A DNA stretch of 24,000 nucleotides from Hyphomonadaceae bacterium (GTDB taxonomy: Bacteria > Pseudomonadota > Alphaproteobacteria > Caulobacterales > Aquidulcibacteraceae): positions 14,949 through 38,948 of the forward strand of contig JAEUMP010000012.1 of NCBI GenBank assembly GCA_016791445.1. Reading direction: 5' to 3'. The notes under the pieces are model-generated. The model did no database searches and was not told the DNA's origin. It saw nothing but the letters and a program-made list of their open reading frames with translations. A program made the translations under genes and the position numbers. The stretch's first letter is position 1. Each line of letters starts with the position of its first letter. Positions 1 through 17,769 of this stretch are shown here, piece by piece.

Positions 1-27
1 CACCGTGCGACGCCCGCGCCGAACCCG

Positions 28-222
28 ATGGCCAGATCGGACGCCGCCATCCTTGACGCCTTGCGCAACAACGGCGGCGCCCTCGTCGGAAGTCTTGCCG
101 CCATCGCCGCGTCCCTGCCCATGCCGGCGAGCACGCTGAGCGCATCGATCAGACGCCTCACCGAACGCGGGCGCGTGCGCCGGGACGCAAACGGTCTGTC
201 GCTCACGCCGCGCGCGGACTAG
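28..222 (+). CDS. Small winged-helix (MarR/ArsR-like) DNA-binding protein; possibly the C-terminal part of a longer ORF, since the frame is open back to base 1
   Basis: The 64-aa translation 'SLAAIAASLPMPASTLSASIRRLTERGRVRR' looks like an HTH recognition helix plus wing. There is no stop in this frame between base 1 and the ATG at 28. Confidence 0.4.
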   Translation: MARSDAAILDALRNNGGALVGSLAAIAASLPMPASTLSASIRRLTERGRVRRDANGLSLTPRAD

Positions 223-386
223 AGCCCGGGCATTTCGCCGTCATCCGCGCGGACCGCAGCGCGAGGCCCGGGCGTCGCGAAAATAATTCAGTCTCCCGCT
301 GCGGGGTTTTGCCGGCCCGTTTGTCTTTCCCCCTGAACGGCGCGCGCCAAGGCGCCGACAGACACCGCGTTGGGGAGACACACACC

Positions 387-3300
387 ATGAAACATGCCGA
401 CAAGGGCCCGCGTCACGGGCGCGCCTGCGATGCCCGCCGTCAAAAATCGCGCAACGGCGACCGCGACGCCGACGCGCGCGGCGCGCGCCGGCGCCACGCC
501 GCGCTCGCAGCATGTCTCGCCGCCGCCCTGCCGGCTGCGGCCGCGGCCCAGGCCCGCGACGGCGCAACGCCCGATGCCGCGAGCGCTGACCGCGCACGCA
601 CGCTCGTCGCCTTCGACATCGCCCCGCAACCACTCGCTGCAGCGCTGTCGGACTTCGCACGACAGGCCGGCGTGCCCGCCCTCTTCGCCTATGGCGACGT
701 CGCGCAGACCCGCGCCAATGGCGTGCACGGGCGCTTTACCCGCGAAGAGGCGCTTGAACGCCTGACGGCAGGGCTTGGACTTTCCGCGCGCCTGACGTCC
801 GCAGGCCTCGTTGTGGACGCGCCATCAGCGCTGGACCCCGACAGATCCGGAGGCGATGGCGCGGCGCGCACGGATGGCGCACACACGCAAACCTCTCCGC
901 CGAGCGGCGCCCGTGCGGGCGCGCCGCGCGCCGAGGCGCAATCGCCAAACGCCGGATCCGCGTCGGCGACCATGGGCGCGGCCGCGCCCTCAATGGACGA
1001 GGTCGTCGTCACCGGCACCCGCATTCGCGGCGCCCCGCCGACCGGCAGCCATGTGGTGACCATCGACCGCGACGCCATCGAGGCGACCGGCCGCACCTCC
1101 ATCCAGGACGTGCTGCAAACGCTGCCGCAGGCGTTTTCCGGCAGCCAGAACGAACTCACCCAGCTCAACTCCACCGCCGGCGGCCGCAACATCGCCTTCA
1201 GCGCCTCCGTCGACCTGCGCGGCCTCGGCGCCGACGCCACCCTCACGCTCGTCAACGGACGCCGTCTCGCGCCCGCAGGCTTCGGCAATTTCGTCGACAT
1301 CTCCGCTGTGCCGCTCGCCGCCGTCGATCGCGTCGAAGTGCTCGCGGACGGCGCGTCGGCGACCTATGGCAGCGACGCCGTCGGCGGCGTCGTCAACATC
1401 ATCCTGCGCCGCGACTTCAACGGCGCGGAGACGACCGTGCGCTACGGCGCAGCGACGGCGGGCGCGCTGGAGGAGAAAGGCCTTTCCCATGTCTTCGGCG
1501 CCACGCGCGGGCGCAGCGCCTTTCTCGCCGGCTACGAATACCGCGCCCGCGACGCCCTCGCCGCCAGCGACCGCGCCTTCGCCGCCGACACCGACCTGCG
1601 CCGCTTCGGCGGCTCGAACTTCTCGCGCACCAACGCCAATCCCGGCAACATCATCCGCGTCGGCACAACCGTCACCGCCTTCGCCATTCCCGCCGGACAG
1701 AATGGCATAACCCTGCGCCAGAGCGATCTCATTGCGGGGCAGCTGAACTTCCAGAACGGCAACGAAGGCGCATCGCTCCTGCCGGCGCAGGAAAGCCACG
1801 GGCTGTTCATGTCCGCGCGCCTGCCGCTCGGCGACAGGATCGAGCTCTTCGCCGACGCGCTCGGCTCACGACGCAAGGCGAACGCGTCCGACAACCAGCT
1901 CGCCACCACGCTCGTGGTGCCCGCCACCAACGCCTATCGCCAGCTCAACGGACTGTTCCCGGGAACCCAGCCGATTACCGTGGCCTACTTTCTCGGCGAC
2001 GATCTCGGGCCGCTGCGCTACGCCACCACCTCAGACACCCACGCGATCACCGGCGGCCTTGAGATCGACATCGCGCGCGCATGGCGTCTGGAAGCGACGG
2101 CCACCTTCGGCGGACACAGCGACGCCGTACGCTTTTCCAACGCCTTCGATTCCACCGCCATCGCCGGCGCGCTCGCCAGTAGCGATCCCGCCACCGCCTT
2201 CAACCCCTTCGGCGACGGCGCCCATACGCCGGCCGCCGTACTGCGCAATCTGACGCTGACCCAGGCGACGGACTCCGACTCCGACATCCGCGCCTACGCC
2301 ATCAAGGCGGATGGACCGCTCTTTGCGCTGCCCGCCGGCGTCGTGCGCGCCGCGGTCGGCGCTGAACGCCGCGAGGAAGCCTTCGCCATCACACGCGTCG
2401 AACGCCGCGCCTCGGGACTGCTCGTGCCCGCCGCCCTGCAGGCGCCTGGCGAACGCGCAGTGTCCGCAGTCTTCGGCGAACTCTACCTGCCGCTCCTCAG
2501 CGCCGAGGCCGGGCTGCCGCTTGTGGAAAGCCTCGCCGCATCGCTCTCCGTGCGCCATGAATCCTCCGACGATTTCGGCGACGCGACGACGCCGAAGGCC
2601 GGCGTGCGCCTGGATGCCGCCGGCGGCCTCAGTCTGCGCGGCGCATGGGGCAAATCCTTCAAGGCGCCGCAATTCGTGCAACTGCTCGGCGGCACCGGCG
2701 GCACGATCTCCTCGGCGCCGGTCTCCATCGATCCGTTCGCCACCAACGGCTCCACCGGCACGCTCCAGATCACCGGCGCCAACCCGAACCTGCGTCCCGA
2801 AACGGCGGAAACCTGGACGCTCGGTTTCGATCTCTCCCCGCCTGCGCTGAAGGGGCTCACGCTCAGCGCGACCTATTTCGACATCGACTTCGCCAACCGC
2901 ATCTCCACGCCCGGCAGCATTCTCGACGCGCTGCGCAATTCCGCCGCCTATGCGGGATTTCTCATCCGCGATCCGACACCCGAACAGATCGCCGCCTACC
3001 TCGCCATTCCGAGCCGGACCGCCGGAACCATTCCGCCCGACGGCATCGAGGCGATCTGGGACGAACGTCTGACCAATCTGGCGAGTCTGCGCGTGCGCGG
3101 CGTCGACCTGTCGGGCGCATGGCGCGTCGAGACCTCGGCCGGCGCCATCACGCTCGCCGCAAGCGCCAGCAAGCTCATGGAGTTCCGGCGGCAGTCCAAT
3201 CCCGTCGTGCCGGCGATCAATCCGCTCGACACCATCCTCAATCCGGTCGACTGGCGCGGACGGGCAAGCCTTGCCTGGAGCGGCGATCACTGGCGGCTCT

Positions 3301-3578
3301 CCGGCGCGCTCAACTACACCGACGACTATCTCGATACGCTGAGCACGCCCGCACGACGCATCGACGCCTGGCGCACGTGGGATGTCCAGATCGCACGCAC
3401 ATGGCGCGCCGATGCCGACAATGGGCAAAAGCCCGGCGTCGAGGCCACACTCAATGTCCGTAACATCACCGACGCCGATCCGCCCTTCGCCAACAATCCC
3501 GTCGGCATGGCGTTCGATACGCTCAACGCCTCGCCGCTCGGACGCTTTGTGTCTTTCGAGATCCGACGCCGATGGTGA
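387..3578 (+). CDS. TonB-dependent outer-membrane receptor/transducer with an N-terminal STN signalling domain (FecA/FpvA-like)
   Basis: The ORF-track frame 309-3578 begins at a TTG; I prefer the ATG at 387 (MKHADKG...), which has GGGGAG 9 nt upstream. A signal-like AALAACLAAALPAAAAAQA is followed by an STN-like segment (LVAFDIAPQPLAAALSDFARQAGVPALFAYGDV...GRFTREEALERLTAGLGL). Then come an Ala/Gly/Ser/Pro linker, a plug domain (DEVVVTGTRIRG...IEATGRTSIQDVLQTLP, RVEVLADGASATYGSDAVGGVVNIILR) and a long beta-barrel ending in an aromatic residue (...FEIRRRW). Confidence 0.9.
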   Translation: MKHADKGPRHGRACDARRQKSRNGDRDADARGARRRHAALAACLAAALPAAAAAQARDGATPDAASADRARTLVAFDIAPQPLAAALSDFARQAGVPALFAYGDVAQTRANGVHGRFTREEALERLTAGLGLSARLTSAGLVVDAPSALDPDRSGGDGAARTDGAHTQTSPPSGARAGAPRAEAQSPNAGSASATMGAAAPSMDEVVVTGTRIRGAPPTGSHVVTIDRDAIEATGRTSIQDVLQTLPQAFSGSQNELTQLNSTAGGRNIAFSASVDLRGLGADATLTLVNGRRLAPAGFGNFVDISAVPLAAVDRVEVLADGASATYGSDAVGGVVNIILRRDFNGAETTVRYGAATAGALEEKGLSHVFGATRGRSAFLAGYEYRARDALAASDRAFAADTDLRRFGGSNFSRTNANPGNIIRVGTTVTAFAIPAGQNGITLRQSDLIAGQLNFQNGNEGASLLPAQESHGLFMSARLPLGDRIELFADALGSRRKANASDNQLATTLVVPATNAYRQLNGLFPGTQPITVAYFLGDDLGPLRYATTSDTHAITGGLEIDIARAWRLEATATFGGHSDAVRFSNAFDSTAIAGALASSDPATAFNPFGDGAHTPAAVLRNLTLTQATDSDSDIRAYAIKADGPLFALPAGVVRAAVGAERREEAFAITRVERRASGLLVPAALQAPGERAVSAVFGELYLPLLSAEAGLPLVESLAASLSVRHESSDDFGDATTPKAGVRLDAAGGLSLRGAWGKSFKAPQFVQLLGGTGGTISSAPVSIDPFATNGSTGTLQITGANPNLRPETAETWTLGFDLSPPALKGLTLSATYFDIDFANRISTPGSILDALRNSAAYAGFLIRDPTPEQIAAYLAIPSRTAGTIPPDGIEAIWDERLTNLASLRVRGVDLSGAWRVETSAGAITLAASASKLMEFRRQSNPVVPAINPLDTILNPVDWRGRASLAWSGDHWRLSGALNYTDDYLDTLSTPARRIDAWRTWDVQIARTWRADADNGQKPGVEATLNVRNITDADPPFANNPVGMAFDTLNASPLGRFVSFEIRRRW

Positions 3579-5734
3579 GCGACGCGCGCACGCGCTGTCG
3601 CCTCGCGGTCCTTGCAGGCGCGCTCGCCGCACTCGTCGCCTGCGTCATCGGCGCAGGCGGCGCATGGGCGACCCCGCGCGCGCGCGACGCAAGTCTTGAA
3701 CGCGCACACGCCATGCAACACGCGCTCCTTGCCTTGGTCGATCTGGGCGGGCGCCGACACGGCATGACGCTGTCGCCCGATGGACGCACCATTGCTGTCT
3801 TTCGCCGCACCACACGCCTTCTTGAGAACGACTACCGCTACGAACTCCTGCTCGTCCCCCTCGACACACCCCCGCCCCTCGACAAGGCCCAAGTCACCAC
3901 ACGGGACACGACACCGGCCACGACCCCGGACATGGCGGCGGCGCGCATCCTCGCCGACGCCGGGGACGCCAACCTGCATACTGCAGACGGGCGTCCCTCC
4001 GGCGCGCTCGCCGACCGGATCGCACGCTGGTCCCCGGACGGACGCGAACTCGCCTATCTCGCCCACAGGCAAGACGTCATCTCGCTTGAGCGCGTGCGCA
4101 TCGCCGACGGCGGCGTTCGCGTCGTCGCCACGGGGCCAGGCGACATTGCCGACTTCGCCTGGCTTGCCGACGGCGGTCTCGTCTTTCGCCGCAACACTAC
4201 ACGGATCGCCCAGGCGCGCGCGTGGCGCGACGGCGCCGTCGCCGGCTATCGCGTCGACGATGCGTTCGATCCCGCCTTCAGCCTGAGACCGCAGAGCATC
4301 GCTCGCGGCGATGACGCGGTTTTCGTCGCTGCGCCCGACGGGCGCCTGCGCGCCGCCGCCCCGCACGAGGCCGCACGTCTCGCACCGTCGCCTGCACCTG
4401 CAGGGGCCATCGACAACGCCGCCGACGCGAGGGGGCGCCGCGCATGGCTCGCCCCGCGACATCCGGGCGATCGCGCCTATCGGCCGACGCTTGCGGTCTT
4501 CACAGACCACGAGGGACGCGCCCTCATGTGCGCCGATCCAGCCTGCCAGGGGCGACTGACACGCGTGTGGCGGACGCGCGAGGAAGTCATCTTCCAGAAA
4601 GCGGAAGGGTTCGCCGACGTCGAAACCGCGCTCTATGGCTGGCGTCCCGACAGCGGGCGCGTGCGCCTCATCCGGCGCGCCGACGACCTCCTGAACGATT
4701 GCGCGCTTGCCGCCGCGCGGCTCATCTGTCTTCACGAGGCCGCGCTCTCACCGCGCCGCGTCGTCGCCGTCGCGCTGTCCGACGGCCGGCTTGCCGCGAT
4801 CCACGATCCCAACCCCTCCTGGCGGGGGGCGCCCCTGACCGCCGTCGAGCGTCTCGACGGTCACGACCATCTCGGCAACGCCTTCTTCGCCCGCATCGTG
4901 CGGCCCGCAGGTCACCGGCGCACCGAGCGCTACCCGCTCGTCATCGTGCAATACCGCGCGCGCGGCTTTCTGCGGGCAGGCACGGGCGGCGAATATCCGA
5001 TCCACATGTTCGCGGCCCGCGGCTATCTGGTGGCCAGCATGGATCGCCCGGATCCTCGCACCCTCCACGCCGAGCTGAGCGCCGCCGACCTCTCGCGGCG
5101 CACCGAGTTCGATGGGAGCGAACAGTCAATGAAGCAGTCCGCGCTCGAAACGCTGATCGCGCGCCTTGACGCGCGCGGTCTCATCGATACCGGCCGCATC
5201 GCCATCACCGGCATGAGCGACGGCGCCGAGACCGTCTATTGGGCGCTCACGCGACCGACCGCCTTCGCCGCCGCCGTCACAAGTTCCCCGCCCATCGACC
5301 CGAGCGCCTGGACGCTCAGTTCGGAACGATTCCGTCGCCTGCGGCGCGCCGAGGACGCCGCGAGCGGCGACTGGCCGGATGCAAACCCCGACTGGGCCGC
5401 CTGGTGGGCGCGCAACACCACGACACGACGCGCCGAACACATTGTCACGCCGCTGCTCATGAACCTCTCCGAAAGCGAGGCGCTGCGCGGCTTTCCGCTC
5501 GCCTCGCGCCTCAACGATCTCGGCAAACCGGTCGAGACCTATATCTATCCCGGCGCCTTCCACGCCAAATGGCGCCCGCAGCAGATCCTCGCCGCCCAGA
5601 CACGCGCCCTCGACTGGATCGATTTCTGGCTCCTCGACGCGCTCAACCCCGCTCCCGACGATCCAGGGCGCGCCGGACGCTGGCGCGCCATGCGCGACGA
5701 TCATCGCTCCCGCCTGCCGGGCACGCCGCCCTAG
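3572..5734 (+). CDS. Lasso-peptide isopeptidase candidate (S9 prolyl-oligopeptidase fold, AtxE1/AtxE2-like)
   Basis: The 720-aa product has an N-terminal half typical of a beta-propeller (repeated SPDG/ADGG strands) and a C-terminal alpha/beta-hydrolase. The hydrolase carries a GxSxG nucleophile elbow (ITGMSDGAE), an acidic stretch (PLLMNLSESE) and a His (YPGAFHAKW). The start ATG overlaps the receptor stop (ATGGTGA). The gene lies next to lasso B/C genes and a TonB-dependent receptor, the context known for AtxE-type isopeptidases. The N-terminus MVSDARTRCRLAVLAGALAALVACVIGAGGAWA|T resembles a Sec signal peptide. Confidence 0.75.
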   Translation: MVSDARTRCRLAVLAGALAALVACVIGAGGAWATPRARDASLERAHAMQHALLALVDLGGRRHGMTLSPDGRTIAVFRRTTRLLENDYRYELLLVPLDTPPPLDKAQVTTRDTTPATTPDMAAARILADAGDANLHTADGRPSGALADRIARWSPDGRELAYLAHRQDVISLERVRIADGGVRVVATGPGDIADFAWLADGGLVFRRNTTRIAQARAWRDGAVAGYRVDDAFDPAFSLRPQSIARGDDAVFVAAPDGRLRAAAPHEAARLAPSPAPAGAIDNAADARGRRAWLAPRHPGDRAYRPTLAVFTDHEGRALMCADPACQGRLTRVWRTREEVIFQKAEGFADVETALYGWRPDSGRVRLIRRADDLLNDCALAAARLICLHEAALSPRRVVAVALSDGRLAAIHDPNPSWRGAPLTAVERLDGHDHLGNAFFARIVRPAGHRRTERYPLVIVQYRARGFLRAGTGGEYPIHMFAARGYLVASMDRPDPRTLHAELSAADLSRRTEFDGSEQSMKQSALETLIARLDARGLIDTGRIAITGMSDGAETVYWALTRPTAFAAAVTSSPPIDPSAWTLSSERFRRLRRAEDAASGDWPDANPDWAAWWARNTTTRRAEHIVTPLLMNLSESEALRGFPLASRLNDLGKPVETYIYPGAFHAKWRPQQILAAQTRALDWIDFWLLDALNPAPDDPGRAGRWRAMRDDHRSRLPGTPP

Positions 5735-7560
5735 CCCGACAGCGCCGCGCGTGCGGCCTGTGCCTCGGCGCCGCGCCGCAGCCGCCGCAACCAGAGCTCC
5801 GCGGCAAGATGCACCATCAAGGCGCTGGAGACCGCGCCGTCGCTCACCGTATCGGACGCAAGGAGACGCCGGGCGGTCGCATCATCGAGAAGGCCCAGAC
5901 GCCTGAGCTCGCCGTCGTGCAGCACCGCGCGCATGAAGGCGAGATTGCGCGACACGACAGCTGCGAAGAAGCGCGTGGTCTCACCCTTGGTGGTGCGCGC
6001 CGCCACCGACGGCGAGAGCCGTGATGCAAACGCATCGCGCACCAGGCCGCGCTCACGACCGCCATGGGTCATCACATAGGCCGGGATCGACAGACACGTC
6101 TCGATGACCGGCTGGGACAAAAGCACCGGCGCACTGCGCACGCGCGTATTGAGCACGCCCGGCGCCTGATAGCGCACCGCGTCGAGGAGATGGGCCACAC
6201 GCAGCGCCTGCGCGGGCGGCTGGCGCGCGCCGGTCGCCAGCCAGGGATGACGTTCAAGCGCGTCTCCCGCGCTGGCGCGCGATGATCCGGCGCGCGCGCG
6301 CAAGAGCGGCGCCCGCGCCAGTCCATGAAGCGCTGCGACCCACGCCACCGCCCAGATTGACCGCCCCGTCAGACGCGCAACCGCCTCCACGATCGCGCCG
6401 ACCTCACGCGCCGTCTCGCCCAGCCACACCGCGTCCGCCGCGATCAGCGGCGAACGACTGCGGTGAAAGAGATGGTCCCCCGCCTGCCCCGACGCCACGA
6501 AATCCACCCCAAGACGGTGCGCCGTCTCCAGTAGCGTCGTGTTGGCGAAACCGAGCAGCGAGGTCGTCGGAGAGACGAAAAGCGGCGCCTCCAGCACGCG
6601 CGCATAGTCGACCGCCGCAGGCGTCATCTCCACTTCGATGACCTCCCTGCCCCAACGCGCCGCCGCCGCGCGCGCCATCTGTCGCTCGTCGCCTTCCGGC
6701 ACATCGCGCGCATATTCGTTCACGCAAAGGACCTCGCACGTATCCGGCGCGCCCTCTTGCGCCAGACACGCCAGGACGATGCTGGAATCGAGCCCGCCCG
6801 AGAGACGCACCATGGCGCGCCGCGCGGTTGTCCCCCAGGCGCGCACCGCAAGCGTCACACTTGATGAAAGGCGCATCGCCGCGTCCGCCGCGCTCTCACG
6901 CACGCCGCCCGCGCGCCGCCGCGCGGGCGCGAAATCCTGCGGCCGCCAGAGTGTGTCGCGCGACACCGTCTCGCGTGAGAACGTGAAACGCTCGCCGGGC
7001 TGCACCAGGGTGACGCCCTTAAGCCCCGTGCGTGCGGACGCAACGCCCGGGTCTTTGAGGAACGCCGCCAGATAGGCGCAATCCGGCAAAAGCGCCCCGC
7101 CGAGTGCGGCGAAATCCTCCGCATGCGAGAAGACCACATGCACCGCGCCGATCTGTGCGTAGTGTGCATGACGATGTCCGCTCGGATCGCGCAGCACATG
7201 GACGAGGTCATAGCCCCGGTCGATCAGCACCGCGACAAACCCGCCCCAATAGTCCCTGAAGAGCGCCTCCCCGCCACCCGCGCAGATCCGACCGGTCTCG
7301 CGCGTCTCCATGTCGGTCGCGCGTGCGCCCGTGACGGTGAACAACGCACCGAAGATCGCGCCTCGCCCCTGCGAGAGCGTCAACGCCGCCACATCCTCGG
7401 GCGCTGCGCGCACCAGCAGGAGGACCCCGCGCCAGTCCACGATCACCGACCAGGCGCATGTCTCGCCGGTCGGGCCCGTCAGCGCGTCCGCCATGCGCCG
7501 CGCTTCGGCCTCGCGCACGCGGTCCACAGGCGTCCAGCGCAGGAGGACAAACCGCAGCAC
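5731..7560 (-). CDS. Lasso-peptide cyclase (C protein; asparagine synthetase B-like, isopeptide-bond forming)
   Basis: The 609-aa product carries the PP-loop ATP-pyrophosphatase motif (VRLSGGLDSSIVLACLA) inside an AsnB-like C-terminal domain, with a degenerate N-terminal domain. The GTG start at 7560 lies 9 nt after the B gene stop. An alternative ATG at 7494 cannot be excluded. Confidence 0.85.
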   Translation of the reverse strand: MLRFVLLRWTPVDRVREAEARRMADALTGPTGETCAWSVIVDWRGVLLLVRAAPEDVAALTLSQGRGAIFGALFTVTGARATDMETRETGRICAGGGEALFRDYWGGFVAVLIDRGYDLVHVLRDPSGHRHAHYAQIGAVHVVFSHAEDFAALGGALLPDCAYLAAFLKDPGVASARTGLKGVTLVQPGERFTFSRETVSRDTLWRPQDFAPARRRAGGVRESAADAAMRLSSSVTLAVRAWGTTARRAMVRLSGGLDSSIVLACLAQEGAPDTCEVLCVNEYARDVPEGDERQMARAAAARWGREVIEVEMTPAAVDYARVLEAPLFVSPTTSLLGFANTTLLETAHRLGVDFVASGQAGDHLFHRSRSPLIAADAVWLGETAREVGAIVEAVARLTGRSIWAVAWVAALHGLARAPLLRARAGSSRASAGDALERHPWLATGARQPPAQALRVAHLLDAVRYQAPGVLNTRVRSAPVLLSQPVIETCLSIPAYVMTHGGRERGLVRDAFASRLSPSVAARTTKGETTRFFAAVVSRNLAFMRAVLHDGELRRLGLLDDATARRLLASDTVSDGAVSSALMVHLAAELWLRRLRRGAEAQAARAALSG

Positions 7561-7569
7561 CGGCTCCGC

Positions 7570-8202
7570 TCACACCGACGCCAGCGGCGTGAAGGACCGG
7601 CAATGGTCCAGCGCGTCGTTGATCACCACGCCCGCGCATTGCACCCAGCAGTGCGCCGCAAACGGTCGCGCCCGCACGCCGACAACGAGGTCCGGGCGAT
7701 GGCGCCGCGACACCAAAAAGTGCATCAGCGCGAGCGAATCGAAGAGACACACCCGTCGTGCAGGATACCAAAGCCGCGTCCGGTAGAATTGCGCGACGTC
7801 CGCCGACAGGACCGTGCGGGCGTTGCCCGCACGCCGCTTGCGCCGACCGAGCGCGCGAAACGCCCGCTCGAGATTGCCGCTCTGAAGATCCATCGCTGCG
7901 CGTGCGCACGCCCAAAGGACACGCGCCCCTGAAGCCCGCGACGGCGCTCCTTCCAGCGGCGGTTGTGCATCGTGCGGTCGCTCGATCCTGCGCGCCATCG
8001 CGATCGCGGCGCCTCCGGGCGTCAGAAGGCCTTCCTTGAGGAGGCGGTCGATGAGCGCGCCGCGCGCCGGCCCGGCCGTTTCGGCGAGACGCGCAAGGGG
8101 CGCTGCCCAATACCGGTTGCGGCGCAGATCGAGAAAGAGGAGGCAATCCGCATCGACGCACGCGCGAACATGCGCAGGCAGGCCATAACCATCGATCGAC
8201 AT
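7570..8202 (-). CDS. Lasso-peptide B protein (fused B1 PqqD-like leader-recognition element and B2 transglutaminase-like Cys protease)
   Basis: The 210-aa product has an N-terminal segment (VRACVDADCLLFLDLRRNRYWAAPLARL...IDRLLKEGLL) resembling a PqqD/RRE fold. The C-terminal segment (RVCLFDSLALMHFLVSRRHRPDLVVGVRARPFAAHCWVQCAGVVINDAL) matches the McjB-type Cys...His...Asp core. GGGAG lies 6 nt upstream of the ATG. Confidence 0.85.
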   Translation of the reverse strand: MSIDGYGLPAHVRACVDADCLLFLDLRRNRYWAAPLARLAETAGPARGALIDRLLKEGLLTPGGAAIAMARRIERPHDAQPPLEGAPSRASGARVLWACARAAMDLQSGNLERAFRALGRRKRRAGNARTVLSADVAQFYRTRLWYPARRVCLFDSLALMHFLVSRRHRPDLVVGVRARPFAAHCWVQCAGVVINDALDHCRSFTPLASV

Positions 8203-8252
8203 CTGACGCTCCCAAAATGCGCGATGTGCGTGCGAAACGCTTCCAGCGCCAA

Positions 8253-8280
8253 GGAGACGCGCCGTCGCCGGCGCGCCTCC
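8253..8280 (-). promoter_or_regulatory. GC-rich stem-loop in the A-B intergenic spacer (candidate attenuator or mRNA-stabilising hairpin)
   Basis: On the minus-strand RNA, GGAGGCGCGCC-GGCGAC-GGCGCGUCUCC forms an 11-bp stem (one G-U pair) with a 6-nt loop. It starts 15 nt after the precursor stop codon and has no following U-tract. Confidence 0.5.
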
Positions 8281-8294
8281 CCGTGGCGCGCGCC

Positions 8295-8423
8295 CTATTC
8301 GTCGCGCGCTTCCGGCTCGACATAGTTCTCCTTGAGGATGTCGTCCGGCAGCCCCAGCGTGCGCTCGCTCGCGCGTCCGAGATCGATGACGCCGTCTTCG
8401 ATGGGATCGTGTTGGGCTTGCAT
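8295..8423 (-). CDS. Lasso-peptide precursor (A peptide), 42 aa: MQAQHDPIEDGVIDLGRASERTL|GLPDDILKENYVEPEARDE
   Basis: I hand-translated the minus strand. GGAGG lies 5 nt before the ATG (complement of 8421-8423) and the TAG stop is the complement of 8295-8297. The ORF is too short for the ORF track. It sits directly upstream of B-C on the same strand. Thr is at -2 relative to the predicted core Gly1, and Glu is at core position 9 (ring acceptor). An in-frame alternative ATG at 8435 would add MEVN but has no SD. Confidence 0.8.
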   Translation of the reverse strand: MQAQHDPIEDGVIDLGRASERTLGLPDDILKENYVEPEARDE

Positions 8424-8526
8424 GTTCACCTCCATGGTGCGGCCGCCGTTTGCGGCCACGAACACGATCGCGCCGACCTGCAGTGCTTCCCAGTCAACTC
8501 TGGTGAATGTTTCGTGCGATGTCCGC

Positions 8527-9219
8527 TCAGTCGCCGTTTCCGCCGAGCGCGCGCAGGACGGCGCGCTCGCGCAACAGCTTTGCCGCTTTCACGCGTCTGC
8601 CATGATAGCGTCGCAGCGCCGCCCGCAGCGACGAGGCCGCCCCCTGCCGAAGACGCGCGGCGAGGTCGTCGAGTTCGCGATCGACATCGCCAAAGAGCTC
8701 GGCCTCCGCGCGCCTTGCGGCATGAAGACGGTCATCGGCATTGACGCCCGCGCGCCTGAGTTCAGGATTGGCGCGCCCCTCCACCGATTGCAGGATCGCC
8801 GCCACACGCAACGGATAGCCGGAGTTCGCTTCAACGCCCGTAGCAGCGCCGCCTGCAACGAGGGCGCCCGCTGCAGGCACATCCACGACAGCGTCATTCG
8901 CGATAGCGTCCTTCGCAACCGGGACCGCGTCGGCGTGCGTTGCGAGCGCGCCCGCCGCCAGCCAGGCGCGCCACTCATAGAGCGCGCGCAGTTCACTTTC
9001 GCTCCAGAGCGAAACGAAAAAGCCCCTGCTCGGTCGCGCGGTGATCAGACGTTCCGCAGCGAGCCGCACGAGCGCTTCGCGCACAGGCGTGCTGCTTGCG
9101 CCCAGTCCATCGGCCAGCGCGCCGACATCGAGACGCGCATGCAGGCGATAGTCGCCGGCAAGGAGCCGGCGACGTATCTCGTGATAGACACGATCGCTGA
9201 CAGGCGGATCAGCCGCCAT
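8527..9219 (-). CDS. GntR-family transcriptional regulator
   Basis: The N-terminal wHTH (SDRVYHEIRRRLLAGDYRLHARLDVGALADGLGASSTPVREALVRLAAERLITARPSRGFFV) matches the GntR signature and is followed by a helical effector domain. I prefer the ATG at 9219 (MAADPP...) over the track start at 9264. That start overlaps the stop of the upstream dioxygenase gene by 11 nt. Confidence 0.85.
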   Translation of the reverse strand: MAADPPVSDRVYHEIRRRLLAGDYRLHARLDVGALADGLGASSTPVREALVRLAAERLITARPSRGFFVSLWSESELRALYEWRAWLAAGALATHADAVPVAKDAIANDAVVDVPAAGALVAGGAATGVEANSGYPLRVAAILQSVEGRANPELRRAGVNADDRLHAARRAEAELFGDVDRELDDLAARLRQGAASSLRAALRRYHGRRVKAAKLLRERAVLRALGGNGD

Positions 9220-10174
9220 CCACCGGCTGTGTCTGTGCAGACGCGCCGACCCGATAGTGCGCATCGAGTTCGGCCTGGATGTCCGGCGTCAGCGCGTCGA
9301 TATGGGGCGCGCGTGCGCACGTCTCGCCGAGGGCCGCGATCGGGTCCTGCCCTTCCCAGCCGCCGAGATTGGGACGATGCATCCGGTAGCCGATCAGGCG
9401 CTGCAGTTCCTCGGGAAACGACCGCGCCACGGACGGCGGATAGGCAAGGAACTGGTTTTCATACTGTTTCAGCCAGCCGAGACAGTACGAGACGATGACG
9501 CCCGTGCGCGGGTGCGCCGAGCGGTTGGCGCCGGCGCCATGCGTGAGCGCGCCGATGAAGAGAAGCGCCGAACCGCGCGCCATCGCGCCGGCCACGCTGG
9601 TGTGCGGATCGACCTCGCGGTCGAGCGCCCCGCGATGACTGCCGGGCCAAAGGCGCGTGGCGCCGTTCGCTTCAGTAAAGTCGCTGACCGCCCACATCAC
9701 GTTGAGCAGCCATGGCGTCTCGCCCTTGGGACAGGGCCACATTTCCTCGTCCCGGTGCGGCGCCTGGGCGCGCTCGCCTGGATGCACCTGCACGGCCTGG
9801 GTGAGATTGAGCTGGATGCAGTCGCATGCCGGGGCGAGAAGCGCGTCGGCTATTGCGACAATCACCGGGTGGAGCACGAGCGCGTGCGCCGACGGCGCCT
9901 TGTCGAGAAGTCCCCCGACACGGGTCGTGCGCCAGCCGTAGAAATCGCCCACGCAGCGCGGCGTGGCGGCAAGCCACGGCGCGAGTTCATCGTCGAGGCG
10001 CGCGACATCCTGCGGGTCGATGAGCGCGTCAAGAATGACAAAGCCGTCGCGTCCGAGCGCCGCGAGCGCCGTCTCGACGATCGACTGCAGCTGCGGCGCA
10101 CCGGACGACGTTGCATCGTCCGCTCGGCGGCATGGACCGGTCCCGGCTGGGGTGTTTGCAACAAGAGGGTTCAT
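9209..10174 (-). CDS. Phytanoyl-CoA dioxygenase (PhyH) family Fe(II)/2-oxoglutarate-dependent oxygenase
   Basis: A HxD...H facial triad is visible (QAPHRDEEMW ... GALTHGAGAN), with a downstream Arg (HPRTGVIVSY) and typical PhyH blocks (ANGATRLWPGSH). I prefer the ATG at 10174 (MNPLVAN...), which has GGAG 7 nt upstream, over the track start at 10240. Confidence 0.85.
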   Translation of the reverse strand: MNPLVANTPAGTGPCRRADDATSSGAPQLQSIVETALAALGRDGFVILDALIDPQDVARLDDELAPWLAATPRCVGDFYGWRTTRVGGLLDKAPSAHALVLHPVIVAIADALLAPACDCIQLNLTQAVQVHPGERAQAPHRDEEMWPCPKGETPWLLNVMWAVSDFTEANGATRLWPGSHRGALDREVDPHTSVAGAMARGSALLFIGALTHGAGANRSAHPRTGVIVSYCLGWLKQYENQFLAYPPSVARSFPEELQRLIGYRMHRPNLGGWEGQDPIAALGETCARAPHIDALTPDIQAELDAHYRVGASAQTQPVDGG

Positions 10175-10236
10175 GGAAAATCTCCGTGGTGGGTGGCGTC
10201 GGCATGGATGGGCGCGCCTCGACGCGCCCGCACGGC

Positions 10237-10866
10237 TCACGCCGCCGCCGGCAAGACGGCCGCAGCAAAGCGCGTCATGGGACCAGTGAGGCTGTTGCGT
10301 GCGCGCACGGCGTTCAGCCCCTCCGGGGTGATCGCTGCGGTGATCGCGCGCACGCGTTCACGCCCCATGCGCATTGTCGGTCCAAGCGGCGCTGCGTCCC
10401 AGCCGATCGCCATCGCCAGCGGCGCGAGCGCGGCGCCCGCCACGAAGGTCACACGCTCCATGCCGAAGAGAAGTCCCGTCTCCATGATGCCGGCGATCAT
10501 GCGCGCCAGGAGCGCCTGACGCGGCGCGCCCTTGGCGATCTGCGGCGCAGGACAAAAGCGCGACACTTCCCAGATCCGCGCCCCGCGCGGCACGCCCGTC
10601 ACGCACAGATGCGCAAACACCTCGCTCATGAGATGCGCCCGCGCCGTCGGCAGGAGACGCACCGAACCGGTGACGGCGCCGTCGTGCGCCGCCGTCTCCA
10701 CGAGATAGACCGCATCGGCGGCGTCGAACTGGTCGATCTCAAGCCCCTGCGGCGCCTCAAGTCCCCAGCGCATGCGATCGATGAAAACCGACTTGCGATG
10801 GCGGTGCATCTCCATCAGCGCGTGCCGGAAGAGATGGCGATTGTCTTCGGTGATGATGTGGATCAT
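10237..10866 (-). CDS. Acyl-homoserine-lactone synthase (LuxI family)
   Basis: The 209-aa product shows conserved LuxI blocks: FRHALMEMHRHRKSVFIDRMRWGL, EIDQFD, GSVRLLPT and IWEVSRF. GGAG lies 5 nt upstream of the ATG. Confidence 0.9.
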   Translation of the reverse strand: MIHIITEDNRHLFRHALMEMHRHRKSVFIDRMRWGLEAPQGLEIDQFDAADAVYLVETAAHDGAVTGSVRLLPTARAHLMSEVFAHLCVTGVPRGARIWEVSRFCPAPQIAKGAPRQALLARMIAGIMETGLLFGMERVTFVAGAALAPLAMAIGWDAAPLGPTMRMGRERVRAITAAITPEGLNAVRARNSLTGPMTRFAAAVLPAAA

Positions 10867-10922
10867 GGGCGCTCCGTCGAAAGCCGCCGGAGCATGGGCC
10901 GCCCGTCGCGCGCCGCGATATG

Positions 10923-10936
10923 GGTCCCACAGGACC
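10923..10936. promoter_or_regulatory. 14-bp palindrome GGTCC-CACA-GGACC in the luxR-luxI spacer (candidate operator)
   Basis: This is a perfect 5-bp inverted repeat with a 4-bp spacer, centred about 63 nt upstream of the luxI ATG. It lies in a locally AT-richer patch that also contains TTGTCA on the coding strand. Confidence 0.3.
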
Positions 10937-10956
10937 TCTTGACAAATTTTCCGTGT

Positions 10957-11694
10957 CTAATCCGCCAGATCGTCAATGCGGATCTGGCCGTCGAGCACGG
11001 CGCGCACGACTGCCTGCACCCTGAACGCCACGCCGTAGCGCTTCTTGGCGCGCTCGATGGTGTTGTGGACGGTGCGCTCATGAATGCCCAGCATCCGCCC
11101 GATGACCCAGTCGCTCTTGCCTGCGCCCGCAAGCGCCAGACACTCGCGCTCGCGCGCGCTCAGTGCGGGGCGCAATGCGTGCGCGCCGTCGTCGAGCAAG
11201 GCCCGCGCGCGCTCGTGCGCATAGACCGCCATGAGGAAGACGGCCGGCACCTGAAGGGGATCGACGCCGTCGGGCCCGGGCACCAGCGAACACGAGGCAG
11301 GTAAGGCGCCCGGAGAATGGATGGGGATGGTCAGGCCGTTGGCGAGCCCGATCGCGGCCGCGTCCTGGAGAATGTCGCGCTGCAGACGCGTGAGACGGCG
11401 CCCCTTGAGCACGTCGTCCCAGAAGAACGGCACAGCACTCGTTCGCGCCGCCATGAAGACGGGGTCGTGCGCGGCGTAGTTTTCCGCAGAGAACCGCGCC
11501 AGCCACGCCGCCGGATAATTGATCATGTTCACCGCACCGGGCGGGGGGCGCAACGGATCGACGTGCGAACAACACGCCACATAGGCAAAGCCCATCGCCG
11601 CCATGTCGGCGAACAGGACGTCGCGCACCGCGTCTGCGCTCGCCGCGGCGCGGCACTTCTCCATGAACTCGATCGCGACCCGGCTGGACGGCAT
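10957..11694 (-). CDS. LuxR-family acyl-HSL-responsive transcriptional regulator
   Basis: The N-terminal autoinducer-binding-like domain (GFAYVACCSHVD...YPAAWLARFSAENYAAHDPVF...PFFWDD) is followed by a C-terminal LuxR HTH (LSARERECLALAGAGKSDWVIGRMLGIHERTVHNTIERAKKRYGV). I prefer the ATG at 11694 (MPSSRV), which has GGAG 5 nt upstream, over the TTG at 11796. Confidence 0.9.
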   Translation of the reverse strand: MPSSRVAIEFMEKCRAAASADAVRDVLFADMAAMGFAYVACCSHVDPLRPPPGAVNMINYPAAWLARFSAENYAAHDPVFMAARTSAVPFFWDDVLKGRRLTRLQRDILQDAAAIGLANGLTIPIHSPGALPASCSLVPGPDGVDPLQVPAVFLMAVYAHERARALLDDGAHALRPALSARERECLALAGAGKSDWVIGRMLGIHERTVHNTIERAKKRYGVAFRVQAVVRAVLDGQIRIDDLAD

Positions 11695-11795
11695 GCGTGC
11701 TCCACTGCCGCGCCCCGTCTTGCATTCACACAATCGCGACGCCGGGACGCGGATTGACTGCGCCTCAAGTCGCTGCGGGCGCGCAGTGCAGGACA

Positions 11796-11813
11796 ATGGG
11801 CAAAACTGCCCAT
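11796..11813. promoter_or_regulatory. 18-bp tra-box/lux-box-like palindrome ATGGGCA-AAAC-TGCCCAT
   Basis: This is a perfect 7-bp inverted repeat with a 4-bp spacer. It matches the Agrobacterium TraR tra box ATGTGCAGATCTGCACAT (recalled from memory) at 14 of 18 positions. Its centre is about 110 nt upstream of the luxR ATG. Confidence 0.4.
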
Positions 11814-12307
11814 CGATGGCTCACAACTTCGCATAGTCGTTCACCTTGGCGCGATCTCGTCAGGAATTGCGCACGCGTTTCGGCGAAGCGCGTCTCCTGA
11901 CGCGCGACGCGTCCTTCTGCTGCTGCAAGAGTGCATCCATGTTCGATGGAGGCGGTGTCGGAATGAGCGCGCCGAGCGCCTCCTCGCAGCGCAGGGCCAT
12001 CGCCGCCCTCATCGGATGACCAAAGGTCGACTGCCTCTCAGGACTCATGCCGCTGTCACGCGCGCAGCCCCATGCCGGCACGACGCGCCGCCTCGCTGTG
12101 CGACCAGTTCTCGCCGACGCGGCGGCGCCTGATCGCCACGCCCAATGCAGCGAACAATTCCGGCGCAGTCTTCAACATCGGCCATATATGGCGCATTGAA
12201 CGTCGCAAACCACGTCAATACGCCAAAGATGGCCAATTCCAACACCGCCATCGGAGCGTGCGAACTTCGCGCCCGCGCCCAGCGGATCGGCCCGAACTTT
12301 GATCGCT

Positions 12308-13648
12308 TCAACGCGCTTGTGCGTCCTGCGCCGCCACCGCGCGCGCGAAGGCGCCGAGGCCCGACCAAAGCACCAGAGCCGACAACGGCAGCGCGCACGC
12401 CGCAACGATCGCCATCGCGTATCGCAACATCGCGTCGTCGCGGAACAGGAAGTCGTTCAGCGCGGCGACCGCCATCGGCCCCAGTCCGAGACCGATCAGG
12501 TTCGCCATGAAGAAATAGAGCGCCGTCACCTGCCCCCGAAACGCATTGGGCGTGATCAACTGCAGGGCGGCCCCGGCGACGCCGCCGTGCATGGACGACA
12601 ACAGCACCGCCGGCGCCAGGAGCGCAAAGGCGCCCACAGGGCTCGCCATGAGGGGCGCTGCGACAAAGAAAGGCGCCGACGACGCCACCGCTATGATGAC
12701 GGCGATGAGGTGTCCCGATCGCAGGCCCTTGCGGAACAACAGATCTGCCAGCACACCCCCGAGGATCAAGCCAGCAGCCCCGCCCGCCGCCATGATCACG
12801 CCGAAGATCATGCCGGCGTCAGCCGGCGCCATACCATAGGTGCGGGCAAAGAAGGTCGGGTACCACGCGAGCCCGCCATAGATGACGAAGGTCAGCAACG
12901 ACAGGCCGAGAAAGTGTCCGCCATACGCGCGCCAGCGCGCGCCGACATAAGCAAAGACAGCGCCGAATTTTTCCGCACGCACGCCCTCGCCGCCACGACG
13001 CGCCGGCTCGCGCACGCTCAGCATCAACAGCGCCACCAGAAGTCCAGGCAGACCGACCATGAAGAATACAAGCCGCCAGGGCTCCGTCTCGCCGAGCACA
13101 GGCAATACCGGCGCTGGCGACTGCGTGGCGAATTTGACGACTAGGCCGCCGACGATCAAAGCAATGCCCGATCCCAGCGGCACGCCGATCGAATAGACCG
13201 CCATCGCGCGACCGAGACGGTGCTTCGGGAAGTAGTCGCTCAGCATCGAATAGGCGGCCGGCGACAACGCGGCCTCTCCGACGCCGACGCCCAATCGCGC
13301 CAGGAAGAGTGCGGCATAGGTCGGCGCCAGACCGCACAGCGCCGTCATCACGCTCCAGAAGGCGATGCCGATGCTGATGATCCGCTGGCGGTTGGCGCGG
13401 TCGGCCAGATACCCGAGCGGCAATCCCATCAGCGTATAGAAAGCGGCAAACGCCAGACCATGAAGAATGCTGAATTCGAAGTCAGATATCTGCAGATCCG
13501 CGCGTATCGGCGCCACCAGCAGACTGAGGATCATCCGGTCGATGAAAGAAACCGTGTAGGCCACAAGCAGCACCGCCACAGCCCACCAGGCAAGCGTCGG
13601 CGCAGGCCACGGCGCCTCGCCGCGAGCGGGATCGGTGTGCGTGTCCAT
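12308..13648 (-). CDS. Major facilitator superfamily (MFS) transporter
   Basis: The 446-aa product is polytopic and hydrophobic, with about 12 hydrophobic segments. It carries the MFS loop 2-3 motif (GLPLGYLADRANRQR) and ARLGVGVGEAALSPAA. Confidence 0.9.
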   Translation of the reverse strand: MDTHTDPARGEAPWPAPTLAWWAVAVLLVAYTVSFIDRMILSLLVAPIRADLQISDFEFSILHGLAFAAFYTLMGLPLGYLADRANRQRIISIGIAFWSVMTALCGLAPTYAALFLARLGVGVGEAALSPAAYSMLSDYFPKHRLGRAMAVYSIGVPLGSGIALIVGGLVVKFATQSPAPVLPVLGETEPWRLVFFMVGLPGLLVALLMLSVREPARRGGEGVRAEKFGAVFAYVGARWRAYGGHFLGLSLLTFVIYGGLAWYPTFFARTYGMAPADAGMIFGVIMAAGGAAGLILGGVLADLLFRKGLRSGHLIAVIIAVASSAPFFVAAPLMASPVGAFALLAPAVLLSSMHGGVAGAALQLITPNAFRGQVTALYFFMANLIGLGLGPMAVAALNDFLFRDDAMLRYAMAIVAACALPLSALVLWSGLGAFARAVAAQDAQAR

Positions 13649-13659
13649 GGGCAGTCGCC

Positions 13660-14166
13660 TCAGCAGATTTCAAAGATGGTGTAGCGGACGCCGGCGCCGG
13701 TCCTTCGTCCCAATCCGATCGCCACGGTCCGGTTCAGCCACCCATAGCGCGGGTCGGCCGTCTCAAAGACCGGGGTCACGCGAAAATAATAGCGCTGCGG
13801 ATCCAGGCATTCGACTTCGTCTGGATTCCGGAACACGCCGAGCACGTCCTTCGGTATGACCAGTCTCCCCTGATAGGTCACATAGATGTCCGCATCATCA
13901 TGCGTGCGCCACAGCGACCGCACGTCGATCAGCGTCAGCGCGTCGCCTGCCTCGTCCACGCCAAGTTCCGACCAGTCTCCGCCGCCCGCACACACCACGC
14001 CGCGCACCCGGTCGCCGGTCACGGTCCCCCCGCCGATGTAACTCACGCGCCGGTTGCGCCACGGCGATCGGCCCAGCGCGATCGGCGCATCCTTTTCCAG
14101 CGTAATGTCGGCGACACACAGCGGGCGCGTGATCACCGCTCCAAAATCCTCGATTGCTGTCGTCAT
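13660..14166 (-). CDS. DUF3237-like beta-barrel protein of unknown function
   Basis: Using the ATG at 14166 (MTTAIEDFG...; GGAG upstream) gives 168 aa. The pattern SYIGGGTVTGDRVRGVVCAGGGDWSEL...DVRSLWRTHDDADIYVTYQGR...FRVTPVFET resembles the DUF3237 family. The stop is 11 nt from the MFS start, so the two are probably co-transcribed. Confidence 0.55.
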   Translation of the reverse strand: MTTAIEDFGAVITRPLCVADITLEKDAPIALGRSPWRNRRVSYIGGGTVTGDRVRGVVCAGGGDWSELGVDEAGDALTLIDVRSLWRTHDDADIYVTYQGRLVIPKDVLGVFRNPDEVECLDPQRYYFRVTPVFETADPRYGWLNRTVAIGLGRRTGAGVRYTIFEIC

Positions 14167-14450
14167 GCGTCTGGTCTCCAGCCCTTTGTATGTCGCGCCG
14201 CCTACGGCGCGCTCACGCCACGCCTGCATCTTTGACTTCACTTCCTGAGTTGCATCTTGCCCCGATCTGCGTGGCTGATGCCGCCCCGCCCCGGCTGTTC
14301 GCTCCTGCCCTTCACCCCCGCACTCCACCGCACTTCACCCCGGCGCGTCTCTGCCGAGCCTCGCCGCTGACCTGCGCCCCGCGCGCCAGGCCGCTCACGC
14401 CCCGGTCGCGCGCGTACGAGCGCGCCATATCGCCTGCCGGACGCCCCGCA

Positions 14451-16830: not shown

Positions 16831-17332
16831 GGCGAAGAAGACGAGGCTTCACGACGCGACGCGCGCGTCGCCCAAGGATACCATTTCGGTCGCCCTATGC
16901 CGGAAGCCGAGGCCTCGAAACACCTCGTGCAGGGGATGCGGCGTCGAGCCCCAAAGACGCTACCCGCCGATCGGCCAGCCGCAGCCGATCCTGACGGAGC
17001 GCGCAAATCTGGCCTGACTTTCGCCCCGCAGACTCTCGCCCTCCGAGGCTTCTGCCCCGGCTATTGGGACCCCAGGAGCCGACCACGCGGGGCGACAAGA
17101 CCATCGCCGCGCACGCCGCCTGAGCGCGCTCATCCCGATCCAACCTGACCATTCCGAACGAAAACCGGTGGATGCGCCATGGTTTGCGGCGGGTCGCAAG
17201 CCGTCGCTGCGCCGCCGGGCTGCGTCAACAAACGCCGCCAGCCATTCTCGTTCGAACCTCGATCAGTGAACCCACGGCTATCCGTCTCGACCGAGCGCAA
17301 ACTGGTCAGGAAATGGACCGTGCCCAACCCGG

Positions 17333-17361
17333 TTGCATGTCAATGTATTGTCAAATATGGT
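17333..17361 (+). promoter_or_regulatory. Candidate hipBA promoter TTGCAT-N17-TATGGT
   Basis: The hexamers and spacing were read directly. They lie in the only AT-rich patch upstream of hipB. Confidence 0.35.
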
Positions 17362-17390
17362 CAGTTATAGGCCTTTCAGGCCCATATTTG
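17352..17390. promoter_or_regulatory. Candidate HipB operator: 9-bp inverted repeat CAAATATGG-N21-CCATATTTG with TAT(G/A)GG half-sites
   Basis: The perfect 9-bp inverted repeat ends 1 nt before the hipB ATG. A nested imperfect 21-bp palindrome TATAGGCCTTTCAGGCCCATA spans 17366-17386. There are three TATRGG half-sites at 17356, 17366 and (inverted) 17381. Confidence 0.4.
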
Positions 17391-17391
17391 G

Positions 17392-17769
17392 ATGATTACT
17401 ATGAGTTCGCCGAAATCGAGATCAGCCCTTGCCCAGATGGGGAAGGATTTGCGCGCCGCACGGCTACGCCGCCAGATAACGGCGGTAGATCTCGCCGCAC
17501 GCGCTGGAACCTCTCCGAACACAGTTGCGAGGCTGGAAAAGGGGGATTCAGGGGTCGCAATTGGGACCCTGGCCGACGTGCTGGTCGCGCTCGGGCTCAT
17601 CGCGCGGCTGGGCGACCTTGTGGACATTCGCAAGGACGAGCTTGGTCTTGCCCTCACCGTTGAGCGCATGCCGCGACGCGCGCGCGCGCCCAGAACGCGC
17701 GGCAAAGCAAAAGAGGGAGCGACCCGGACGACGCCGGGCGCCTCGGACCCTGACGGCGCGGCATTCTGA
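17392..17769 (+). CDS. hipB: XRE-family HTH antitoxin (HipB-like)
   Basis: The HTH ITAVDLAARAGTSPNTVARLEKGDSGVAIGTLADVLVALGL is followed by a basic disordered tail. The stop overlaps the hipA start (TGATG). An alternative ATG at 17401 is possible. Confidence 0.8.
   Translation: MITMSSPKSRSALAQMGKDLRAARLRRQITAVDLAARAGTSPNTVARLEKGDSGVAIGTLADVLVALGLIARLGDLVDIRKDELGLALTVERMPRRARAPRTRGKAKEGATRTTPGASDPDGAAF

Follow-up and report, generated by a model that had tools for sequence, protein, structure and literature searches.

Since the first description of the isopeptidase in 2013, the lasso peptides associated with it have lacked an established function, and the locus analyzed here raises the question of whether it encodes such a peptide and what the surrounding genes suggest about its use. 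The locus lies in a stretch of 24,000 nucleotides (nt) from a Hyphomonadaceae bacterium (contig JAEUMP010000012.1, positions 14,949 to 38,948; hereafter the window), which has a G+C content of 67.7%. An earlier note, made from the letters alone, had proposed that a short open reading frame (ORF) on the minus strand of the window encodes a lasso-peptide precursor. On the basis of the sequence comparisons reported below, we consider it highly likely that 8295-8423 (minus strand) encodes the precursor (gene A) of a lasso peptide of class II, which has no disulfides, and that it belongs to the isopeptidase-bearing alphaproteobacterial clade. The gene is made up as follows:

8295-8423, minus strand: lasso precursor gene A (predicted), 42 amino acids (aa) and stop, leader MQAQHDPIEDGVIDLGRASERTL and core GLPDDILKENYVEPEARDE
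8355-8423, minus strand: leader of gene A, 23 aa, with the C-terminal sequence ...DLGRASERTL
8298-8354, minus strand: core of gene A, GLPDDILKENYVEPEARDE, 19 codons
8295-8297, minus strand: stop codon TAG of gene A
8429-8433, minus strand: Shine-Dalgarno sequence GGAGG, 5 nt 5' of the ATG at 8423

The minus strand reads GGAGGTGAAC from 8433 to 8424 and continues with the ATG at 8423, and the product of the ORF is MQAQHDPIEDGVIDLGRASERTLGLPDDILKENYVEPEARDE; both the letters and the translation match what the earlier note had read. As it had also stated, the ORF lies between the gene for a GntR-family regulator (8527-9264) and the maturation genes B (7570-8202) and C (5731-7560), all of them on the minus strand, and is missing from the ORF list, in which even the mechanical ORF of 56 aa would miss a listing threshold of 60 aa. 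The core contains seven acidic and two basic residues, the same count as before, and Glu9 is the sole acidic residue at core positions 7-9, whereas Thr(-2) is the sole Thr in the whole precursor peptide (...ERTL/G). Monoisotopic core masses were 2201.049 Da for the linear form and 2183.038 Da for the dehydrated form (minus water), in agreement with the values previously calculated by hand.

We collected 80 related loci by B-protein similarity in species-representative genomes, and in nearly all of them B is preceded by between one and three short ORFs that have the leader pattern of the window ORF. For a family profile hidden Markov model (HMM), we used 92 unique precursors encoded ahead of B in related loci and left the window out. 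Against this profile the ORF scored 39.8 bits (E = 1.5e-11), and the runner-up among 851 small-ORF/start-codon combinations in the window reached 1.8 bits. The resemblance of the ORF to lasso precursors far exceeds chance. Two curated models gave matches that were specific though sub-threshold and that cover the leader and the first core residues: the NCBIfam model NF033522 (benenodin family lasso peptide; 25.4 bits, E = 9.6e-6, residues 1-32 only) and the Pfam model PF24178 (Subterisin; 23.9 bits, E = 4.1e-5, residues 2-32). A phmmer search over 1.84 billion representative proteins returned only the peptide itself and two relatives (P0097 and P0098), which are, written as leader/core, MLHERDLPDDDVIDLGAATEKTL/GLPDDILKENFVVPEARDE and MREDLITEDIVDLGAASERTL/GTYDILLKESFVIPEARD. 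Both are encoded directly upstream of B genes whose products are 41-49% identical to the window B, and both loci are syntenic with the window.

In an alignment of 12 family members, L15, G16, A18, Thr(-2), Gly1, Lys8, Glu9 and Pro14 were invariant, and Asp4 was nearly invariant. Conservation of Thr(-2), Gly1 and Glu9 supports cleavage after Leu(-1) and a nine-residue Gly1-Glu9 ring; the Thr at -2, the Gly1 donor and the Glu9 acceptor of a predicted 9-membered ring had all been named in the earlier note. That note had also pointed to loss of the ORF or of its frame in syntenic loci as telling evidence, and we found the frame kept in such loci together with Thr(-2), Gly1 and Glu9. Compared with the relative in locus L089, whose B protein is 49% identical, 6 synonymous-only and 2 non-synonymous changes were present among the 19 core codons, and 4 synonymous-only and 11 non-synonymous changes among the 23 leader codons. 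This pattern indicates that the precursor frame is under coding selection and that the core is more constrained than the leader. A strain that is 2-4% divergent in neighboring genes showed one synonymous change in gene A. Within its own family, the window core is more conserved than the leader and the enzymes, opposite to the usual lasso pattern, which suggests a constrained partner such as the receptor, the isopeptidase or a target. Identity to this nearest relative (window 8298-8354 versus L089 299-355) amounted to 89% for the core, 52% for the leader and 49% for B.

The core is not unique and belongs to an uncharacterized family of ~30 related cores, here called KEN, with the pattern G-x-(Y/W/P)-(D/E)-x-x-x-K-E-(N/S/T)-(F/L/Y/H)-x-x-P-x-x-(R/F)-(D/P). 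Its members, for example GIYDPVKKENLVTPQARDF and GIYEPLAKENFVEPEARD, originate from metagenome-assembled genomes that bear the labels Terricaulis, Hyphomonadaceae, Vitreimonas and Caulobacteraceae, and their precursors have in common with the window this skeleton and the full gene order luxR-luxI-phyH-gntR-A-B-C with convergent isopeptidase (E) and receptor genes. Several differences could be observed within the family. The window and P0097 cores begin with GLPDD, whereas other KEN cores begin with G(I/V)(Y/W)DP; two precursors in tandem are usual in the relatives, against a single one in the window; and the enzymes of the relatives are only 37-49% identical to those of the window. Tandem precursors in L009-L023 and L090-L093 comprise an A1 type (...PEARD/PQARDF) and an A2 type (GVWDP...KEN...). 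We encountered the GLPDDILKEN subtype solely in a single JGI sample and in Logan assemblies, the latter of near-identical strains, and a metagenome scan with a degenerate DNA pattern for GLPDDILKEN gave 0 matches. A metagenome scan with a two-sequence alignment yielded 428 pattern matches, of which none passed confirmation by tblastn, a step that says little for a query of 42 aa. Queries with the window core, six related cores and Terricaulis plus lasso returned nothing in the searchable literature.

The maturation, isopeptidase and receptor genes surround gene A in the following arrangement:

7570-8202, minus strand: fused lasso B protein, 210 aa, with a putative N-terminal leader-binding (RRE-like) domain and a C-terminal B2 cysteine protease
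5731-7560, minus strand: lasso cyclase C, asparagine-synthetase-like, 609 aa (PF00733, 82.7 bits), PP-loop SGGLDS at residue 254
3572-5734, plus strand: AtxE2-family isopeptidase E, 720 aa (NF033523, 534.6 bits; cut-off 400)
387-3578, plus strand: TonB-dependent receptor, 1063 aa, with plug and barrel domains and a weak STN match; ORF from 309

B matched PF13471 (63.1 bits) and NF033537 (78.8 bits; cut-off 33), and its residues Cys152, His184 and Asp196 (Cys-His-Asp triad) were invariant in 22 homologs. The best match to B in the species-representative genomes was 43% identical; the source organism is not among these genomes and, judged by best hits, is probably an uncultured relative of the Terricaulis/Hyphomonadaceae group. 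An AlphaFold2 model of B (pLDDT 84.6, pTM 0.82) contains an N-terminal domain of a small sheet and helices. The isopeptidase gene converges on C, with an overlap of 4 nt. The protein matched the AtxE2 structure 5txc with E = 6.4e-87 and has a GMSDG nucleophile motif at 547. Its N-terminus (3572-3670, plus strand), MVSDARTRCRLAVLAGALAALVACVIGAGGAWA, with ...ALVACVIGAGGAWA, resembles a Sec signal peptide; such a signal would put linearization of the lasso peptide in the periplasm, beside the outer-membrane receptor. The receptor likely starts at the ATG at 387, corresponding to a gene call of 1063 aa in L001, a longer contig that is identical to the window and was used to read sequence beyond the window edge, and it overlaps the isopeptidase start by 7 nt. 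It has a long N-terminal extension with the weak STN match. Upstream of it (window 1-386; L001 18244-20087) are a HipA fragment with a helix-turn-helix domain and an unknown protein. Elsewhere in the window, a major facilitator superfamily (MFS) transporter and a DUF3237 protein are encoded at 12308-14328 (minus strand), a second TonB-dependent receptor at 14595-16778 (plus strand) and a HipA-type toxin module at 17172-19001 (plus strand). The MFS transporter is a possible exporter candidate.

This gene set and order, namely GntR, A, fused B and C with a convergent receptor and AtxE2-type isopeptidase, are the same as in the clusters of astexins, benenodins, sphingonodins, sphingopyxins and subterisin. 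The GntR-A-B-C arrangement with convergent receptor and isopeptidase genes and no ABC exporter has been summarized as the architecture of the clade (PMC9266682). The window core has Gly1 and an acidic residue at position 8/9 in common with isopeptidase-associated class II peptides, and it is unrelated to any characterized member of the class that we know. In addition, an annotated precursor of Sphingobium pCHQ1, ...IIDLGTASAVTQ/GMGSGSTDQ..., shows the same leader pattern as the window, ...(I/V)DLGxA(S/T)xxTx/G.

Known lasso rings contain 7-9 residues. Ring closure on Asp4 or Asp5 was ruled out because these residues are outside this span, and cleavage at Gly16 was ruled out because neither a Thr at -2 nor an acidic residue 7-9 positions further on would be available. 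With regard to the plug, Tyr11 and Arg17 had both been put forward previously. Among the family precursors, only Arg and Phe occur at core position 17, and position 11 is occupied by Phe, Leu, Tyr or His. Given the restriction at position 17 and the location of Tyr11 only two residues past the ring, Arg17 appears the likelier plug and Tyr11 an unlikely one. Arg17 as lower plug would leave a loop of ~7 residues (Asn10-Ala16) and a 2-residue tail.

Upstream of gene A, the minus strand carries the GntR gene and a set of genes of a predicted module for quorum sensing by acyl-homoserine lactones (AHLs):

8527-9264, minus strand: GntR-family regulator (PF00392, 60.7 bits), immediately upstream of A
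9209-10174, minus strand: PhyH-family Fe(II)/2-oxoglutarate dioxygenase, 321 aa (PF05721, 100 bits); ORF to 10240
10237-10866, minus strand: LuxI-family AHL synthase, 209 aa (PF00765, 73.5 bits)
10923-10936, no strand assigned: lux-box-like palindrome GGTCC-N4-GGACC, GGTCCCACAGGACC, 57-70 nt upstream of the luxI ATG
10957-11796, minus strand: LuxR-family AHL receptor/regulator (PF03472, 109 bits, and GerE); ORF of 279 aa

GntR likely starts at the ATG at 9219, with an overlap of 11 nt between this start and the PhyH stop; the overlap is also 11 nt in L091, and it is 4 nt in L096, a locus of Sphingomonas paeninsulae YZ-8. PhyH contains an HRD iron-binding motif, and its nearest solved structures are fungal and bacterial small-molecule dioxygenases (SwnH2, PrhA and DhiD). 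LuxI identity was 51-66% in Terricaulis/Hyphomonadaceae-type syntenic loci and fell to ~32% in sphingomonad loci. For LuxR, gene callers give 245 aa versus the 279-aa ORF (L001 calls). A 46-aa gene without a family match was called upstream of luxR (~11860-12000, minus strand; L001 6466-6606) in several assemblies of the locus. The palindrome is the sole exact site in the window. Thirteen related loci have a palindrome of another sequence in the matching place, in most cases directly behind a conserved GTCAAT (majority TGTCAAT), which is the behavior of a lux box. A lux-box-like site with one mismatch at 14729-14742 was rejected, as it is inside a coding region and within chance expectation.

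We further examined how general this arrangement is, counting only loci in which 3.5 kb or more of sequence precedes B. Genes luxI and phyH were found upstream on the same strand in 39 of the 47 isopeptidase-containing loci, versus 1 of the 24 loci without an isopeptidase match. The order luxR-luxI-phyH-gntR-A-B-C, with E and the receptor convergent (window 309-11796), is conserved in ~40 species (L010-L023, L025, L031-L034, L042-L043, L046, L053, L055-L059, L062-L063, L071-L074, L076, L078-L079, L081, L083-L084 and L096), including genomes of Sphingomonas, Sphingopyxis, Allosphingosinicella and Vitreimonas. The same arrangement is present in the cultured isolate S. paeninsulae YZ-8 (L096), for which an independent PGAP annotation exists. 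Median identities were 59.5% for PhyH and 53.1% for LuxI, compared with 33.3-36.6% for B, C and E. In related loci PhyH co-occurs with LuxI, the exceptions being one locus in which luxI would fall beyond the contig end and four in which the sole LuxI-like match is distant or located differently. Since PhyH is inseparable from LuxI and separable from the lasso genes, it most likely belongs to the AHL module, where it may act on the acyl substrate or on the AHL product of LuxI.

For Sphingomonadaceae, a luxR-luxI-phyH topology with a gene order and orientation as in the window has been described (Gan et al. 2013, 2015; PMC3704786, PMC4288048). The GntR and lasso genes that follow phyH in the window and in those 39 isopeptidase-type loci are unmentioned in these papers. 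Lasso reviews (PMC9266682, PMC13352647) treat the GntR regulator, the receptor and sigma/anti-sigma pairs and make no mention of quorum sensing. In a search that covered mainly papers outside the subscription literature, we found none that connects lasso peptides to luxI, phyH, AHLs or quorum sensing, and an earlier description elsewhere is conceivable. The conserved linkage between lasso genes and LuxR/LuxI/PhyH is apparently undescribed. A transposon in a lasso B2 gene of Sphingomonas BPH abolished the use of phenanthrene, and a separate paper reports that LuxI/LuxR quorum sensing regulates degradation of polycyclic aromatic hydrocarbons in Croceicoccus (PMC11006600, PMC7432010). Given the linkage between lasso and lux genes, these two phenotypes might be connected.

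The transcript of gene A has two potential hairpins:

8250-8286, minus strand: GC-rich stem-loop in the A-B intergenic region, strong, without a U-run
8439-8459, minus strand: short GC-rich stem-loop (8 bp) of the 5' untranslated region, immediately upstream of the ribosome-binding site

Folding of 8195-8300 gave -54.4 kcal/mol (z = -2.6), and a hairpin of 10-18 bp, differing in sequence, follows the last precursor stop in all of the 17 related loci. Other lasso clusters also contain hairpins between A and B, which may favor expression of the precursor over that of the enzymes. The A-B hairpin probably sets the stoichiometry of A to B/C or stabilizes the A transcript. The 5' hairpin was present in all eight loci folded, with weak statistics, and pairs with the ribosome-binding site in some of them. 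A scan of 8150-8600 for consensus promoters and terminators found nothing, including no terminator-like T-run; Rfam and tRNA scans of the whole window were also negative, and no motif common to the upstream regions of A and the receptor was detected.

Taken together, these genes suggest a scheme in which LuxR with AHL, bound at the lux box, would probably drive luxI-phyH-gntR and tie expression to cell density, while GntR would gate the A-B-C operon and the hairpin after A would keep the amount of precursor above that of the enzymes. The N-terminal domain of B would bind the leader motif (V/I)-x-(D/E)-L-G-x-A-(S/T)-x-x-T-x, and its protease domain would cut the Leu(-1)/Gly1 bond. C would then adenylate the Glu9 side chain and join it to the Gly1 amine, giving a 9-residue macrolactam with the tail threaded (2183.04 Da). 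After release from the cell, the lasso peptide would probably re-enter via the adjacent TonB-dependent receptor, and a periplasmic isopeptidase would probably linearize it back to 2201.05 Da.

Other explanations of the ORF and its product have to be weighed against this scheme. A short frame that lies below the thresholds of the curated models and is without experimental support could have arisen by chance or be decayed, so that no peptide is produced. The specificity of the family HMM (39.8 versus 1.8 bits) speaks strongly against this, as do the retention of the frame and key residues where the enzymes are only 40-50% identical, the excess of synonymous changes in the core and the intact B, C and E genes, and we regard such an explanation as having almost no chance of being correct. 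A less drastic alternative concerns the start codon. The open frame runs upstream to a GTG at 8465, which makes the longest ORF and agrees with the public gene call P0001, both of 56 aa; translation from this GTG would give a precursor with a 37-residue leader and leave the core and the product unaltered. However, the GTG lacks a Shine-Dalgarno sequence, whereas GGAGG stands 5 nt before the ATG at 8423; related precursors are 37-43 aa long, and in 17 related loci GGAG precedes the precursor ATG by 5-8 nt, in a position matching the ATG at 8423; the 14 additional codons overlap the conserved 5' hairpin; and the extension does not raise the family HMM score. Based on the GGAGG spacing, the same spacing and the lengths in relatives, and the absence of an HMM gain, the ATG at 8423 is better supported, and a GTG start appears very unlikely.

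The remaining alternative accepts the lasso peptide but adds a further step, in which PhyH would hydroxylate it, likely at a conserved Asp/Asn, to a mature mass of 2199.03 Da (+15.995), and the resulting beta-hydroxy-Asp might bind metal. PhyH is encoded directly before GntR with overlapping stop and start codons and is present in 39 of the 47 isopeptidase-type loci; the near invariance of Asp4 and the location of a cluster with a very acidic core beside a TonB-dependent receptor would also fit, and a precedent for an Fe/2-oxoglutarate lasso hydroxylase is provided by CanE acting on canucin A (PMC9266682). On the other hand, the presence of PhyH tracks that of LuxI and not that of the lasso genes: at least 10 B/C loci, with or without GntR, lack both PhyH and LuxI, and luxR-luxI-phyH is also found without lasso genes (PMC3704786, PMC4288048). 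Furthermore, PhyH is ~14 kb away from the lasso genes in pCHQ1, and its closest solved relatives act on small molecules. We therefore consider hydroxylation of the peptide by PhyH improbable, and the unmodified lasso peptide remains the preferred product.

It should be noted that several points weigh against the assignment of gene A and against the scheme outlined above. Scoring with lasso-precursor HMMs, which the earlier note had suggested, gave a divided outcome: the ORF is well recognized by its own family profile, but it does not reach the curated cut-off of NF033522 (33 bits) or the gathering threshold of PF24178 (27 bits), and hence the peptide is not to be filed as a benenodin or a subterisin. 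In a Foldseek search with the B model, the top PDB matches of the N-terminal domain were the lasso B1 proteins 5v1v (TbiB1) and 6jx3, with non-significant E-values of 0.08-0.3, and the resemblance of the C-terminal half to transglutaminase-like cysteine proteases was likewise non-significant. A FecI/FecR-type sigma/anti-sigma pair beside the receptor is near-constant in the isopeptidase clade (PMC9266682), and such pairs were found in L094, L096 and L097; in contrast, no sigma or FecR domain was present upstream of the window receptor (L001). Among the window ORFs scanned there was no ABC-transporter domain, and no exporter was identified. Copies of the window locus all come from metagenome assemblies of near-identical strains, which makes within-species variation little informative. 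In addition, threading, the ring residue and the plug are predictions, and we infer quorum-sensing control of the cluster from gene order and one palindrome.

With respect to the peptide itself, the window brings to light a previously unreported family of strongly acidic lasso cores, which the curated precursor models of genome annotation fail to recognize. Thousands of lasso precursors can be predicted from genomes, and the peptide is one further member of this well-known class rather than a new kind. Most isopeptidase-associated lasso peptides show no antimicrobial activity (PMC9266682). We tentatively propose, as a possibility that we rate at less than even odds, that isopeptidase-type lasso clusters are the output arm of a conserved AHL quorum-sensing unit: the peptide would be made under density control, re-imported and destroyed, its role being that of a second-tier signal or of a cargo shuttle and not of an antibiotic, and the unusual conservation of the acidic KEN core would reflect co-evolution with the receptor and the isopeptidase. 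The link to quorum sensing matters more than the peptide, as it provides a concrete regulatory hypothesis, and it offers a route to switch on normally silent clusters by means of the cognate AHL or expression of LuxR.

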